Part shown: in pieces, positions 44,101 to 53,100 of the stretch
How the letters are laid out: every line of letters begins with the position of its first letter
Numbering within the stretch: position 1 is the stretch's first letter
Assembly: GCF_013315695.1 (NCBI RefSeq)
Contig: NZ_CP054353.1
Direction: 5' to 3' (one strand)
DNA length: 64,000 nucleotides
Source: Escherichia coli
GTDB taxonomy: Bacteria; Pseudomonadota; Gammaproteobacteria; Enterobacterales; Enterobacteriaceae
Program-made: the position numbers

Positions 44101-47100
44101 AGCAAAAGGTCAATCAGCTGGCGAGCAATGTGCAAACATTAAATGCCAAAATCGCCCGGCTTGAGCAGGATATGAAAGCATTACGCCCACAAATCTATGC
44201 TGCCAAATCCGACGCTAACAGAGCCAATACGCGTCTTGATGCCCAGGACTATTTCGATTGCCTGCGCTGCTTGCGTATGTACGCAGAATGATAAAAAAAT
44301 TCCCGGCAGCATTCTGTTACCGGGGATATTTTTTAACGTCCAACCGCCGCTTTAGGGCGTTTCTTCGCACCAGCATTCTGCAGGCGAGATTGCGTAGACG
44401 ACGCTTTTTTTGCCGTAGCAGGCGTCTGACGCTGGGTCGCCATCGGCGTATGTTTAGTCAACGCCGGGCGGGTATTGCGGTTCTGGCGACGAGCCTCACG
44501 CATCTCTTCAATGGTTGGCGCAGGCACTAAGCAATCGCGACGGCTGCCAATCAGATGCTTTTTGCCCATCGCTTCCAGCGCCTGGCGGATTAACGGCCAG
44601 TTTGCCGGATCGTGGTAACGCAACAACGCTTTATGCAGACGACGCTGTTTGTCGCCCTTCGGCACGAAGACGTCTTCACTCTTATAACCAATCTTCGCCA
44701 GCGGGTTTTTGCCGGTGTAATACATGGTGGTCGAGTTAGCCAGCGGCGACGGATAGAAGTTCTGCACCTGGTCGAGGCGGAAACGATGCTTTTTCAGCCA
44801 CAGCGCCAGATTCACCATATCTTCATCCCGCGTACCGGGGTGTGCCGAGATGAAATACGGGATCAGATACTGTTCTTTACCTGCCTGTTTCGAGTAAGTA
44901 TCGAACAGCTCTTTAAAGCGGTCATAGCTGCCCATGCCCGGCTTCATCATCTTCGATAACGGCCCTTCTTCGGTATGTTCCGGGGCAATCTTCAGATAAC
45001 CGCCAACGTGATGGGTCGCCAGCTCTTTGATATAGCGCGGATCTTCCACGGCGATGTCATAACGTACGCCGGAAGCGATCAGGATCTTTTTAATGCCTTT
45101 CAGATCACGCGCACGGCGATAGAGGTTGATCGTCGGTTCGTGGTTAGTGTCCATATGCGGACAAATATCCGGATAAACACACGACAAACGACGGCAGGTT
45201 TGCTCAGCGCGTGGCGATTTGCAGCGCAACATATACATGTTGGCAGTAGGCCCACCGAGATCGGAAATCACGCCCGTAAAACCTGGAACAGTGTCGCGGA
45301 TCGCTTCGATCTCATTAATAATCGAATCTTCGGAACGGCTCTGAATAATGCGCCCTTCGTGCTCGGTAATAGAACAGAAAGAGCAGCCGCCAAAGCAGCC
45401 ACGCATAATGTTGACCGAGAAACGAATCATTTCGTAAGCCGGAATTCGGGCATTACCGTAAGCCGGATGCGGCACGCGCTTGTACGGCAGCGCAAAGACG
45501 CTATCCATCTCTTCGGTAGAAAGCGGAATAGCAGGCGGGTTGATCCATACATAGCGGTCGCCATGTTTTTGCATCAATGCGCGGGCGCAGCCTGGGTTAG
45601 TTTCGTGGTGCAGAATGCGCGAAGCATGGGCGTACAGCACTTTATCGCCCTTCACTTTCTCGAAAGAAGGCAGCAACACGTAGGTTTTTTCCCACGGTTT
45701 CGGGCGTGGTGGCTGCACGGTTACAGCTTTGGCTTCCTGCTTTTTCGGAGCTACCGGTTTGTTATCCGCGCACGGCAAATCTTCGCCATACGGATGCGGG
45801 ATTGGGTCGATTTTCCCTGGGGTATCAAGACGGGTGGAATCCACACCGCTCCAGCCTGGCAACGCCTCTTTTACGATAATCGCGGTATTACGCACATCGC
45901 GGATTTCACTAATCGGCTCGCCCATCGCCAGACGGTGCGCCACTTCCACCAGCGGACGCTCACCGTTACCAAACATCAGCATGTCGGCTTTCGAATCCAC
46001 CAACACGGAACGGCGCACGGTATCGGACCAGTAATCATAATGCGCGGTACGGCGCAGGCTGGCCTCAATACCGCCGAGGATCACCGGCACATCTTTCCAC
46101 GCCTCTTTACAACGTTGGGTATAAACCAGTGTGGCGCGATCCGGACGCTTACCCGCGACATTATCTGGCGTGTAGGCATCGTCATGACGTAAACGGCGAT
46201 CGGCGGTATAGCGGTTGATCATCGAGTCCATGTTGCCTGCGGTAACGCCGAAAAACAGATTCGGTTTACCCAGACGCATGAAATCGTCTTTGCTGCTCCA
46301 GTCTGGCTGGGCGATGATCCCGACGCGAAAGCCCTGCGCTTCCAGCATACGACCGCAAATCGCCATCCCGAAGCTTGGGTGATCGACATACGCGTCGCCA
46401 GTAACCAAAATGATGTCGCAGCTATCCCAGCCAAGTTGATCCATCTCTTCACGTGACATCGGCAAAAACGGTGCCGGTCCAAAACAGGCGGCCCAGTACT
46501 GCGGCCAGGAGAACAGGTCGCGATCCGGTTGGATCAGGGAGATAGAGCTCATTTTGCTTCCAGAAATGATAAAAAAATAATCAAAGGCCGGGGATTATAC
46601 GCTGTATCACGCGCGGAAATGAAGTGATGTTGATGAACGGTGGCGAAATACCCTGGTGAGGTTTTTCACTGCCCGACTTGGGCAAGCACATTTAAGGCTG
46701 GCGGTATCGTGGCAACTGCCGCTACTATTTATGCCGATCAGCAACGTTCAAATCATATTGCACGACGATCGGCTATCCGAGGACACCCACAGTAAGGCAA
46801 GGTATGGAACAGGTTATTACAAAGCGCCGCTATTACGATATTGGTCTACAGATTGAAGAGCTGCTGTATTCAGGCGTATTTAAGGCCGGAGAACGCTTAC
46901 CTTCAGAACGTGAACTGAGCGAGCGGTTTAATACCAGCCGAACTACCATTCGTGAAGCCATCATTATGCTGGAACTGAAAGGCGTATTGAATGTGAAGCA
47001 AGGGTCAGGGATTTTCTTTGTCGACTCCACCGATAAGCTCAGCCAGAAATCATTAATGCCCTATTCAGAAATTGGCCCGTTTGAACTGTTGCAGGCGCGT

Positions 47101-50100: not shown

Positions 50101-53100
50101 GGCAAAATTGTTTTCATCGGTTTGTACATTGGTGAACTTGTTATTGACGATCCGACCTTCCATAAAAAAGAGACAACGTTACTCAGCAGCCGCAATGCCA
50201 CACGGGAAGATTTTGCGTTGGTGATTGAACTGATGCGCAGCAATAAAATTCACGAAAATTTAATGAAAAACCAGGCATTCAATTTCTTTAGTGTTGGCGA
50301 AGATTACCAGCGTAACGTTGTAGAAAATAAAAATATGGTCAAGGGTGTGATCACTTTTTAAGGGAACAAATATGACAACTGTTTATGTCAGTGAAGAAAA
50401 TTTAAAATCACTGGTGCACCACAAATTACATACCGCCGGGCTGGATACCGACACCACACAACAGGTGACAGATGTTTTAGTACATGCCGATATTACAGGT
50501 GTGCATTCACATGGTGTTATGCGTGTCGAACATTATTGCACCCGCCTTGCTGCCGGAGGGTTAAATAAAGCCCCGCAGTTTAGCATTGAGCAAATTTCAC
50601 CGTCAGTGGCCATTCTCGACTCTGACGACGGAATGGGGCATTCCGCATTAATTAGCGCCACTGAGCACGCTATTAAACTGGCCCAGCAAGAGGGCCTCGG
50701 TTTTGTTAGCGTTAAAAACACGTCTCACTGTGGTGCGTTATCTTATTTTGCAGAGATGATCACCAACAAAGGGTTGGTTGCTATCGTAATGACGCAAACC
50801 GATACCTGTGTGGCTCCCCATGGCGGCGCCGAGCGCTTTTTGGGAACTAACCCCATCGCCTTTGGTTTCCCGGTGGAAAACAGCCATCCGATGATTGTTG
50901 ATATGGCGACCAGTGCCACGGCTTTCGGCAAAATACTTCATGCAAAGGAAACCGGAAAACATATTGGTGAAGGGCTGGCGATAGATAAAAACGGTTATGG
51001 CACCACTGATCCGTATAAGATTGAAAACCTGCTACCTTTCGGCCAACACAAAGGTTCAGGCATTGCACTGGCTATTGATGCACTGACTGGCGTGCTGATG
51101 AATGCGAATTTTGGCAACCATATTGTTCGCATGTATGGTGATTATGACAAGATGCGTAAGCTGGCAAGTTTGGTTATTGCCATCGATCCGAAAAAGCTCG
51201 GCAATCCTGTTTTTGCAAAAACCATGGCGCAAATGGTCACGGAGTTGCATGCCGTTAAACCGGCTCCCGGTATCGAAAAAGTGTTAGCGCCGAACGATCC
51301 GCAAATGCACTACAAAGAAAAATGCCAACAGGAAGGTATTCCGGTTCCGGCAGGAATATTCCATTATCTGGCAGAGAATTAATCACTACTTTTTATTATA
51401 ACGATAGAAAAGCGCTGTATTTATCGTTTCTGTTATATTAACCAGGAGCAGGATATGAAAGCACTTCGTCCTCTGACGGCATCGCTTATGCTGTTAACCA
51501 GTTGTTTATTAATATCTAATACCACACTGGCAAAAATAACATTAAAACTGAGTCATAATCAGGATAAAAGCCATGCTGTCCATAAAGCATTAAGCTATTT
51601 AGCGGATAAAACCAAAGAGTATTCTAATGGTGAATTAGTTATTCGCATTTACCCAAATGCAACATTAGGTAATGAGCGTGAATCACTGGAATTAATGAAC
51701 TCCGGTGCATTACAGATGGTTAAGGTTAATGCCGCATCACTAGAATCATTTGCTCCAGATTACAGCCTTTTCAGTCTGCCGTTCTTATTCCGCGACCGTG
51801 ATCACTATTATCGTGTTCTGCAAAGTGATTTAGGTAAAAAAATACTTAATTCATCAGAAAGCAAAGGTTTTGTTGGTATTACGTACTATGACGGCGGTGC
51901 GAGAAGTTTTTATTCCAATAAACCGATTACAAAACCTGAAGATTTAGCGGGAATGAAAATCAGGGTTCAACAAAGCCCCAGCGCCATTGCAATGATGAAA
52001 GCACTCGGTGGTGTCGCTACCCCGATGGCGCAAGGCGAACTCTACACCGCACTTCAGCAAGGTGTGGTTGATGGCGGAGAGAACAATACCGTTGTCTATT
52101 CCGATATGCGTCACGCCGAAGTCGCAAAAGTCTATTCACGTGATGAACACACCATGGTACCTGATGTGTTAATTATCAGCACCGACGTGTTGAATAAACT
52201 TGGTGATAAAGAGCGCACGGCATTATTAAAAGCAGCCGGTGATGCTGCCAACTTACTGATTTAGTGTATGATGGTGTTTTTGAGGTGCTCCAGTGGCTTC
52301 TGTTTCTATCAGCTGTCCCTCCTGTTCAGCTACTGACGGGGTGGTGCGTAACGGCAAAAGCACCGCCGGACATCAGCGCTATCTCTGCTCTCACTGCCGT
52401 AAAACATGGCAACTGCAGTTCACTTACACCGCTTCTCAACCCGGTACGCACCAGAAAATCATTGATATGGCCATGAATGGCGTTGGATGCCGGGCAACAG
52501 CCCGCATTATGGGCGTTGGCCTCAACACGATTTTACGTCACTTAAAAAACTCAGGCCGCAGTCGGTAACCTCGCGCATACAGCCGGGCAGTGACGTCATC
52601 GTCTGCGCGGAAATGGACGAACAGTGGGGCTATGTCGGGGCTAAATCGCGCCAGCGCTGGCTGTTTTACGCGTATGACAGGCTCCGGAAGACGGTTGTTG
52701 CGCACGTATTCGGTGAACGCACTATGGCGACGCTGGGGCGTCTTATGAGCCTGCTGTCACCCTTTGACGTGGTGATATGGATGACGGATGGCTGGCCGCT
52801 GTATGAATCCCGCCTGAAGGGAAAGCTGCACGTAATCAGCAAGCGATATACGCAGCGAATTGAGCGGCATAACCTGAATCTGAGGCAGCACCTGGCACGG
52901 CTGGGACGGAAGTCGCTGTCGTTCTCAAAATCGGTGGAGCTGCATGACAAAGTCATCGGGCATTATCTGAACATAAAACACTATCAATAAGTTGGAGTCA
53001 TTACCGATTATGTCTACAGCAAAGAGTTGTATATCAAGGCACATTGATGTCTTTATCGCCGTCGGAGCACGTCCGGCGGCGCTATTCACGCTGATCTCCT

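Follow-up and report, generated by a model that had tools for sequence, protein, structure and literature searches.

A cluster of accessory genes for a regulator, three dehydrogenases and part of a transporter lies between ygiQ and parC in a 64,000-nucleotide stretch of Escherichia coli DNA (contig NZ_CP054353.1), referred to here as the window. We consider it probable, at about 60%, that this cluster is the remnant of an old enterobacterial locus for the utilisation of sugar acids of the hexuronate family, which belongs between ygiQ and ftsP and has been damaged in this strain by the insertion sequence (IS) IS1. In the intact allele of strain SCU-301, seven genes stand between ygiQ and ftsP: the regulator gene (REG), a mannitol-dehydrogenase-family gene (MDH), a gene for a Zn-dependent alcohol dehydrogenase (Zn-ADH; the gene is called ZADH), an Ldh2-family gene (LDH2), and dctP, dctQ and dctM, which encode the substrate-binding protein (SBP) and the two membrane subunits of a transporter of the TRAP (tripartite ATP-independent periplasmic) type. 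REG and the three dehydrogenase genes are intact in the window. The open reading frames (ORFs) of the window were listed and their products searched against NCBIfam and the PDB, with NCBIfam equivalog cutoffs used as the test of being a named enzyme or regulator. The genes of the islet, followed by its left flank, are these.

46804-47553, plus strand: REG, a GntR/FadR-family regulator, UxuR/ExuR-like (best NCBIfam models UxuR, 192 bits, cutoff 442, and ExuR, 184 bits, cutoff 396)
47876-49348, plus strand: MDH, a mannitol-dehydrogenase-family oxidoreductase, UxuB/YdfI-like (NCBIfam fructuronate reductase NF011611, 508 bits, cutoff 603; best PDB match 4im7, YdfI, E 1.7e-141)
49345-50361, plus strand: ZADH, a Zn-dependent polyol/aldonate dehydrogenase, LgoD-like (55.9% identical over its full length of 338 aa to LgoD, the L-galactonate oxidoreductase of K-12)
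50372-51382, plus strand: LDH2, an Ldh2-family dehydrogenase, AllD-like (NCBIfam ureidoglycolate dehydrogenase models, 342.5 bits, cutoff 356, and 320 bits, cutoff 496; best PDB matches the AllD structures 4h8a and 1xrh)
51455-52237, plus strand: truncated dctP, 261 of 327 codons (from the ORF list and comparison with the intact SCU-301 allele)
44333-46552, minus strand: ygiQ (radical SAM), a conserved gene flanking the islet on its left (an ORF annotated as ygiQ in the identical strain MSB1_4I and in K-12)

A sequence-only reading of the window had proposed five co-directional genes, and these are real, all five lying on the plus strand in the ORF list; the NCBIfam and PDB searches back each of the families that it named. 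The ATGA coupling of the Zn-dependent dehydrogenase to the preceding gene was also seen, as a 4-bp overlap between the end of MDH and the start of ZADH. For MDH itself we adopted the RefSeq start, an ATG at 47876 with AGGAG upstream at 47861-47865, in place of the TTG at 47840 given by the mechanical ORF list. ZADH and LDH2 have the same RefSeq protein accessions as in SCU-301. The statement that K-12 lacks the locus proved correct for MG1655, in which ygiQ and ftsP are 110 bp apart and none of the islet genes is present. The successive spacings from MDH through ZADH, LDH2, dctP and dctQ to dctM are -4, 10, 72, 41 and 10 bp, and REG stands 322 bp upstream of MDH; it therefore probably forms its own transcription unit outside the tightly packed operon. 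The idea of one operon under the GntR regulator may hold for the dehydrogenase genes and probably does not extend to the regulator gene itself.

The same reading held that the substrate could not be named. This view can be revised, since the SBP is an orthologue of Salmonella STM3169, a published D-glucuronate binder, and the two best-matched enzymes resemble LgoD and UxuB/YdfI. The intact E. coli DctP scores 240 bits on the NCBIfam model TRAP_S1 (cutoff 50) and 221 bits on TIGR00787 (cutoff 175), and DctM of the intact allele scores 513 bits on TIGR00786. DctP is 83% identical to the SBP of the syntenic ygiQ-dctPQM-ftsP locus of Salmonella, and DctQ and DctM are 71% and 88-89% identical to their Salmonella counterparts. 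The best PDB matches of DctP are the EFI hexuronate-type SBPs 4ovr, 4x8r, 4n8y, 4mhf and 4n91; it scores 233 bits against 4ovr versus 104 bits against 4pbq, which we take to be the L-gulonate SBP of Haemophilus influenzae. Herman et al. 2020 (PMC7660916) named 4N91 and 4MHF as glucuronate binders and reported for STM3169 a Kd of 0.17-0.25 uM for D-glucuronate, no response to galacturonate or gluconate, and a thermal shift with galactonate without confirmed binding, using a ligand panel that left out L-aldonates and keto-deoxy acids. The residue numbering of STM3169 fits the Salmonella protein of the syntenic locus exactly, and N35, Q36, E74, R150, R170, N210 and D237 are all identical in E. 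coli under the same numbering; R150 and R170 among them bear on the carboxylate-binding arginine expected of a DctP-family protein. On this comparison the intact E. coli transporter is the orthologue of STM3169-71, and we infer that it would give high-affinity uptake of D-glucuronate, the binding of which was measured for the Salmonella protein. The Salmonella locus lies at the same site (ygiQ ... ftsP-plsC-parC) and keeps the seven ligand residues as well as the upstream boxes described below. It differs in having no REG or dehydrogenase genes there, whereas in the window it is the transporter that has been destroyed, by IS1.

The intact 7.74-kb locus was used as a query against 5426 complete E. 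coli genomes and was found in 1212 of them (22%), including O25b:H4, LF82 and E2348/69. At least 80% of the locus was covered in 1202 of the 1212 carriers, and it was nearly always single-copy and chromosomal (1 of the 1217 matching places was a plasmid record). A 2026 genome paper (PMC12928451) lists it, with in-silico annotation only, as "GR 21 ygiQ..ftsP", common to APEC O1, IMT5155, RS218, IHE3034, 78-Pyelo, CFT073 and LF82. E. whittamii, Klebsiella huaxiensis and K. spallanzanii carry all seven genes in the corresponding position; E. albertii has the locus at this site on a contig that stops within dctQ, and E. fergusonii encodes near-identical proteins. In Salmonella enterica, where the ygiQ-ftsP site holds dctPQM only, the DNA upstream of dctP can be aligned with the stretch between REG and MDH in Escherichia and Klebsiella (alignment A1, comprising E. 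coli, E. whittamii, two Klebsiella species and the Salmonella dctP upstream region). The Salmonella sequence in this alignment still shows what is left of the ribosome-binding site and start of MDH, which points to loss by deletion and not to insertion. We read REG and the three dehydrogenase genes as having been lost in Salmonella, and the whole locus as having been lost in K-12-like E. coli.

On this reading the islet is an old locus that is being differentially deleted. The description of it as a variable metabolic islet, as opposed to a mobile island, was upheld, as searches of the window found no tRNA, integrase or flanking direct repeats as island boundaries at the locus, and the site is occupied in Klebsiella and partly in Salmonella. 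A horizontally acquired mobile genomic island inserted beside parC is very improbable. Such an island would be consistent with the G+C content (~0.37-0.50 over much of 46.5-52 kb, versus 0.50-0.56 in the flanks), with carriage by only 22% of E. coli and with the adjoining IS1. However, in addition to the missing boundaries, E. albertii, E. whittamii, Klebsiella and Salmonella (TRAP genes only) have genes at the ygiQ-ftsP site, the divergence of the islet proteins between genera resembles that of the flanking core genes, the Salmonella dctP upstream region bears the mark of a deletion, and IS1 explains local damage only. With its lowish G+C content, the differentially deleted locus could still have had an ancient foreign origin.

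The position "between ygiQ and parC" given by the sequence-only reading is a secondary state; the native right neighbour is ftsP, and the placement of parC results from an IS1-mediated inversion. In SCU-301 the islet is followed by ftsP-plsC-parC-ygiS on the opposite strand, in a K-12-like arrangement. In the window, which is 100% identical to E. coli MSB1_4I in this region, the order is truncated dctP, IS1, parC (plus strand), plsC, ftsP, a dctM remnant, an inverted IS1 and ygiS. The features involved are the following.

52238-53005, plus strand: IS1 copy A, 768 bp, insA/insB (IS1 termini and insA/insB ORFs; annotated as an IS1A-family transposase)
53006-53014, no strand: 9-bp target-site copy GATTATGTC, the reverse complement of GACATAATC, equal to 21683-21691 of the intact reference L002
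53015-58169, no strand: inverted chromosomal segment (window 53006-58177 aligns to L002 21691 down to 16520, reversed)
53185-55443: parC, within the inverted segment
55677-56414: plsC, within the inverted segment
56489-57901: ftsP, within the inverted segment
57972-58181, minus strand: 3' remnant of dctM (in the MSB1_4I annotation, a partial 'TRAP transporter large permease')
58170-58937, minus strand: IS1 copy B, inverted relative to copy A (inverted-repeat pair of 773 nt, 100% complementary)
58938-58946, no strand: second 9-bp target copy GACATAATC, at the 3' end of ygiS, equal to L002 21683-21691

Compared with the intact allele, 1.83 kb is missing, made up of the 3' end of dctP, dctQ and most of dctM. 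The DctP-type gene that had been noted is present, but it is cut by IS1, its ORF running through the 261 native codons and a further 8 codons of IS1 to a stop at 52264. DctQ and DctM are encoded in intact alleles; here dctQ is gone and dctM is reduced to its last 206 nt, and so the TRAP transporter cannot function in this strain. IS1 copies A and B, identical at 768 of 768 bases, flank the segment in inverted orientation, and the same 9 bp of the intact reference are found at both new junctions, inverted relative to each other. An inverted pair of identical copies together with an inverted 9-bp duplication indicates intramolecular replicative transposition of IS1 yielding an inversion, and the loss of 1.83 kb on one side of the original IS1 without a direct target duplication fits an IS1-adjacent deletion. 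As read from these junctions, the deletion came first, and the same IS1 then inverted ftsP-plsC-parC by jumping into the 3' end of ygiS. The identity of the two copies indicates that the event is recent. The junction of truncated dctP and IS1 occurs in one piece in only 2 of the 5426 complete genomes, and the adjacency to parC is a strain-level accident. The window fits the deletion and inversion products of intramolecular IS1 transposition and provides a clean natural example in which IS1 first deleted DNA and then inverted a block of essential genes, in this case parC, plsC and ftsP, which moved together with the native DNA upstream of them.

Several further observations concern IS1 in this region. 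Copy B lies in the last ~12 codons of ygiS (58911-60512), the ORF of which ends inside IS1 and encodes 533 aa versus 535; the gene is annotated as 1602 bp here and as 1608 bp elsewhere. The 42 bp displaced from the 3' end of ygiS moved with the parC upstream DNA to 53006-53047, and parC retains its native 137-bp upstream DNA. A third copy of IS1, in forward orientation, is found at 18851-19618, its first 30 bases matching copy A, and the presence of three copies in 64 kb makes more IS1-mediated rearrangements likely in this strain. In other E. coli (for example strain 81009, NZ_CP021179.1, and strain Eco-15, NZ_CP047710.1) the match to this region is split into 2-3 pieces and is longer than the query by 0.7-3.2 kb, and the Eco-15 annotation has an IS1B-family transposase within it. 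These split matches suggest IS insertions in or beside the operon elsewhere, and the operon may be a repeated IS target.

The products of the four intact genes were assigned to families as follows. REG is 38% identical to K-12 UxuR and ExuR, and its Klebsiella orthologue has GntR and FCD Pfam domains; judged by these comparisons it is a paralogue of UxuR/ExuR and neither protein itself. Against the K-12 proteins, MDH has an identity of 49.8% with YdfI and 49.2% with UxuB. Its family membership is clear, Mannitol_dh N- and C-terminal domains being present in its orthologue, and it may be a fructuronate reductase. ZADH is 31% identical to RspB, the structure of which (4ilk) is its best PDB match; its best NCBIfam Zn-dependent oxidoreductase model gives 197 bits (cutoff 376), and its context includes no lgoT or lgoR. 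LDH2 is 40% identical to AllD (PMC12928451), and a role as ureidoglycolate dehydrogenase (AllD) was considered and rejected, as both scores lie below their cutoffs and the genes around it belong to sugar-acid metabolism, the all genes being absent. Because REG, MDH, ZADH and LDH2 all fall short of the curated cutoffs, none is simply a second copy of a named protein. Our literature search found no function assigned to the three dehydrogenases, and found the E. coli locus described in silico only (PMC12928451).

A possible role for ZADH would be to oxidise the L-configured C5 hydroxyl of hexonic acids, and MDH could reduce the resulting 5-keto acid to the D configuration, so that the two enzymes together would perform a redox inversion of C5. 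L-Gulonate and D-mannonate, L-galactonate and D-altronate, and 2-keto-3-deoxy-L-galactonate (L-KDGal) and KDG (2-keto-3-deoxy-D-gluconate) are pairs of C5 epimers, and a dehydrogenase and reductase pair can therefore invert C5 by oxidation and then reduction. With these enzymes, L-galactonate or L-gulonate might be turned into D-altronate or D-mannonate, L-KDGal into KDG, and fructuronate (from glucuronate via UxaC) into mannonate. MDH would act on fructuronate, tagaturonate or 2,5-diketo-3-deoxygluconate, ZADH would feed L-galactonate, L-gulonate and L-KDGal into the same 5-keto intermediates, and the products would pass via UxuA/UxaA and KdgK-Eda (KDG/Entner-Doudoroff), encoded elsewhere. 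Characterised Ldh2-family members interconvert 2-oxo and 2-hydroxy acids, and LDH2 probably carries out the same kind of exchange on a related sugar acid, between its 2-oxo and L-2-hydroxy forms. Schemes in which it reduces 2-keto-L-gulonate, oxidises a uronate at C5, reduces L-KDGal at C2 or oxidises L-glycerate were rejected, each being redundant or needing an extra enzyme. In the window, REG and these three genes, all intact, now stand beside parC, and their transporter is dead.

One alternative is that the locus is an operon for L-aldonates (L-galactonate or L-gulonate), paralogous to lgoRTD and rspAB-ydfIJ. After import by the TRAP transporter, ZADH would oxidise C5 to give tagaturonate or fructuronate, and MDH would produce altronate or mannonate for UxaA/UxuA. 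The identity of ZADH to LgoD, the ~50% identity of MDH to both YdfI and UxuB and the UxuR-like regulator are what such an operon would predict, but the SBP scores (233 bits to 4ovr, of the glucuronate/galacturonate group, versus 104 bits to 4pbq, with the ligand presumed above) are not, and in other genera the module of dehydrogenases is not beside UxuA/UxaA, Budvicia aquatica excepted. We regard this alternative as possible though doubtful. A precedent exists in the TRAP-linked L-gulonate pathway of H. influenzae, in which, behind a TRAP SBP, a first dehydrogenase converts L-gulonate to D-fructuronate and a UxuB-type reductase converts this to D-mannonate (PMC5788505). As proposed for the islet, the lgoR-lgoT-lgoD, rspAB-ydfIJ and H. 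influenzae HiGulD-HiUxuB systems combine Zn-ADH oxidation of an L-aldonate at C5 with a UxuB-type reductase and a GntR/FadR regulator (PMC5788505). They differ from it in having the major facilitator superfamily (MFS) carriers LgoT/YdfJ, or an HI0052-type SBP, in place of a glucuronate-type TRAP transporter; the islet in turn has an extra Ldh2-family gene and no dehydratase.

The composition of the locus had also been likened to the yiaK-yiaMNO system for 2,3-diketo-L-gulonate, a product of ascorbate breakdown. The likeness lies in the occurrence together of an Ldh2-family enzyme and a sugar-acid TRAP transporter, and it extends to the model for YiaM being the sole NCBIfam match of DctQ and that for YiaN the second match of DctM; in other genera, moreover, a DUF386 (YiaL-family) protein is paired with Ldh2, as in yiaK-yiaL-yiaMNO. 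It is nonetheless superficial. LDH2 reaches 125 bits with the YiaK model (cutoff 316), DctQ 32 bits with that of YiaM (cutoff 260) and DctM 288 bits with that of YiaN (cutoff 800), and among PDB structures LDH2 scores 81 bits against YiaK versus 265 bits against AllD. There is no lyxK, sgbH, sgbU or sgbE in the intact locus and no DUF386 gene in the E. coli locus, and the SBP is orthologous to a glucuronate binder. A system of this type is highly improbable.

The three dehydrogenase genes were also found as a module in other genera. One genome per species was scanned with LDH2, followed by ORF clustering, which gave 26 loci outside Escherichia/Klebsiella. These come from Phytobacter, Budvicia, Enterobacillus, many Vibrio that degrade agar or algae, Neiella, Agarivorans, Aliagarivorans, Psychromonas, Alginatibacterium and the alpha-proteobacterial Pseudovibrio. 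In 22 of the 26 loci the order MDH, ZADH, LDH2 is kept without interruption, usually with REG adjoining; the exceptions are three Pseudovibrio loci, with MDH distant or missing, and B. aquatica, with a different order. The three dehydrogenases are 60-77% identical to the Vibrio sp. qd031 copies. The transporter varies by locus, and the STM3169-type TRAP is found only in Escherichia and Klebsiella. A gene for 3,6-anhydro-L-galactonate cycloisomerase (ACI) lies at most 10 kb away in 20 of the 26 loci, and a typical unit is ACI-Eda-KdgK divergent from MDH-ZADH-LDH2. Other frequent neighbours are a KDG/KDGal-type kinase, Eda, an aldehyde dehydrogenase, KduI and a YhcH/YiaL-family (DUF386) protein. 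KduI is present in eight loci, and KduD in none of these except B. aquatica, which is also the only case of UxuA or UxaA beside the module. The ACI of Vibrio sp. qd031 (725 bits against PDB 5xd7, VejACI) is near-identical to VejACI, and its identity with the copies of Enterobacillus, Budvicia and Salmonella is 78-80%.

In canonical clusters for 3,6-anhydro-L-galactose (AHG), such as those of Cellulophaga and Pontiella, the genes encode an aldehyde dehydrogenase, ACI, a Zn-ADH and a short-chain dehydrogenase/reductase (SDR). This Zn-ADH and SDR match a route from L-KDGal via 2,5-diketo-3-deoxy-galactonate (L-DDGal) to KDG that is known from P. atlantica and cited in PMC5943477; bacterial L-KDGal catabolism beyond that was called unresolved in a 2024 review (PMC11219438). 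In the proteobacterial AHG clusters, the module is the only dehydrogenase set, with no other Zn-ADH and no SDR. Gene context of this kind suggests that the module may turn L-KDGal or diketo-deoxy acids into KDG in those organisms. We put forward, tentatively and at well below even odds, that the module is the missing bacterial route from L-KDGal (and related 5-keto or L-configured 3-deoxy acids) to KDG, in a non-orthologous replacement of the Bacteroidota-type Zn-ADH and SDR.

Applied to the E. coli locus, this would mean a dedicated pathway from L-KDGal or 2,5-diketo-3-deoxygluconate to KDG, in which ZADH oxidises L-KDGal at C5 and MDH reduces the diketo acid, the two replacing the canonical Zn-ADH and SDR (or KduD), and in which the TRAP transporter imports L-KDGal or 5-keto-4-deoxyuronate-like acids, not only glucuronate. 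The neighbourhoods described above argue for it, in the frequency and identity of ACI, in the divergent ACI-Eda-KdgK units, in the loci with KduI and no KduD, and in the lack of any other Zn-ADH or SDR, as does the P. atlantica route. Orthologues of the module and of REG stand beside ACI, KDG kinase and Eda in agar-degrading gamma-proteobacteria, and the AHG clusters of Vibrio sp. EJY3 (AHG dehydrogenase and ACI) and P. atlantica (L-KDGal 5-dehydrogenase and L-DDGal 5-reductase) are among the closest known systems (PMC5943477, PMC11219438). The E. coli locus, however, is without ACI, AHG dehydrogenase, KdgK, Eda, KduI, DUF386 or aldehyde dehydrogenase, and thus without the kinase and aldolase of those clusters, and its SBP retains all of the glucuronate-binding residues of STM3169. 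Two enzymes would be enough for the pathway, which leaves LDH2 unexplained. Compared with the Cellulophaga and Pontiella clusters, the islet has a mannitol-dehydrogenase-family enzyme in place of the SDR, and ZADH, at 25-28% identity to the Zn-ADHs of canonical AHG clusters, was rejected as their orthologue. On balance, such a dedicated pathway is an unlikely account of the E. coli genes, and we prefer the broader reading of a hexuronate-family sugar-acid locus.

Regulation of this locus can be approached through alignment A1, in which the following elements were identified.

47632-47645, no strand: candidate operator box 1 (AATTGGTCTAATAA), with a ATTGGTCT core invariant in alignment A1
47817-47849, no strand: candidate operator boxes 2 and 3 (TTTGGCCTAGTGA, AAATTGGTCTACA), just upstream of MDH and conserved across the five A1 sequences

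The three boxes (ATTGGTCT, TTTGGTCTA and AAATTGG) are kept from E. coli to Salmonella, where boxes 2 and 3 precede dctP, and box 1 resembles TTGGTnnACCAA palindromes that precede the orthologous gene in marine loci. In the intact form, a REG-repressed promoter with three conserved TTGGTCTA-type boxes could drive the six-gene operon MDH-ZADH-LDH2-dctP-dctQ-dctM. The TTGGTnnACCAA pattern has no perfect or 1-mismatch match in the 64-kb window.

A number of points weigh against our interpretation. With up to 2 mismatches, the TTGGTnnACCAA pattern matches at 23 places in the window; since such matches are common, only the boxes conserved across genera were retained, and it is that conservation alone which gives them weight. 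A consensus scan of 46.4-53.3 kb gave 9 promoter-like and 8 terminator-like elements, a yield not above that of shuffled sequences. All of the enzymes score below their NCBIfam equivalog cutoffs, and the E. coli enzyme roles and SBP binding are drawn from homologues and context and are not assay-based. The specificity of the SBP, for a uronate, and the nearest homologues of the enzymes, which suggest an L-aldonate 5-dehydrogenase, form no obvious linear pathway, and their connection through UxaC and fructuronate is an inference of ours. As the module loci were seeded by LDH2, its constant presence in them is circular, and given the 25-28% identity of ZADH to the canonical enzymes, an activity on L-KDGal is deduced from gene context alone.

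The locus is of a familiar sugar-acid type: it is annotated by PGAP, it appears in a comparative paper, and its transporter has a characterised orthologue. The window copy is a broken accessory sugar-acid operon and represents ordinary variation of the E. coli pan-genome. The locus is a marker of B2-type strains and of strains of extraintestinal pathogenic or adherent-invasive type (CFT073, LF82, ST131, E2348/69), and the Salmonella orthologue of its transporter is a reported macrophage-survival factor. Of mild interest are the three-dehydrogenase module and its link to the metabolism of AHG and keto-deoxy acids; the module neighbours point to the fate of L-KDGal in the agarose (AHG) pathway, which is relevant to seaweed biorefining. 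If the module is indeed the missing L-KDGal route, it would have spread from agar-degrading Vibrio, Agarivorans and Neiella to an islet between speA and speB in Salmonella and to phylogroup-B2-type E. coli. Part of a sugar-acid pathway derived from red seaweed or uronates would then be present in gut and extraintestinal enterobacteria, with an Ldh2 step new to science.

The Salmonella islet just mentioned is an ACI-type variant that many S. enterica carry between speB and speA (4075-11968 of L040/L041). It encodes an MFS transporter, DUF386, Ldh2, Zn-ADH, a mannitol-dehydrogenase-family protein, an enolase-superfamily protein and a GntR/FCD regulator, with products 63-78% identical to the E. 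coli proteins. The enolase-superfamily protein is 80% identical to the ACI of Vibrio sp. qd031, an enzyme for a red-alga sugar acid that is unexpected in an enteric pathogen. Vibrio sp. 10N.286.49 has a second LDH2 paralogue, 66% identical to E. coli LDH2 (L017 19533-20540, L020 15321-16328), and its position beside agarolytic GH2 and GH117-like genes hints at an AHG-related role for the Ldh2 enzyme itself. In B. aquatica (L036 1-17867), the only locus with the module among classical Uxu/Uxa genes, UxuA, UxuR, UxuB, UxaC, ExuT, a KdgK-like protein, LDH2, DUF386, MDH, ZADH, KduI and KduD are encoded, so that the module is embedded there in a complete hexuronate locus. Two minor differences were seen outside the islet. 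In Salmonella the dkgA-ygiQ interval (L004/L005 5252-7206) contains Na+/sulfate-symporter-family and HIT-family genes, versus yqhG-yqhH in E. coli. In the ygiS-ygiV gap of the window (60512-60621), as in MSB1_4I and SCU-301, the mqsR-mqsA toxin-antitoxin pair that K-12 has there is absent.

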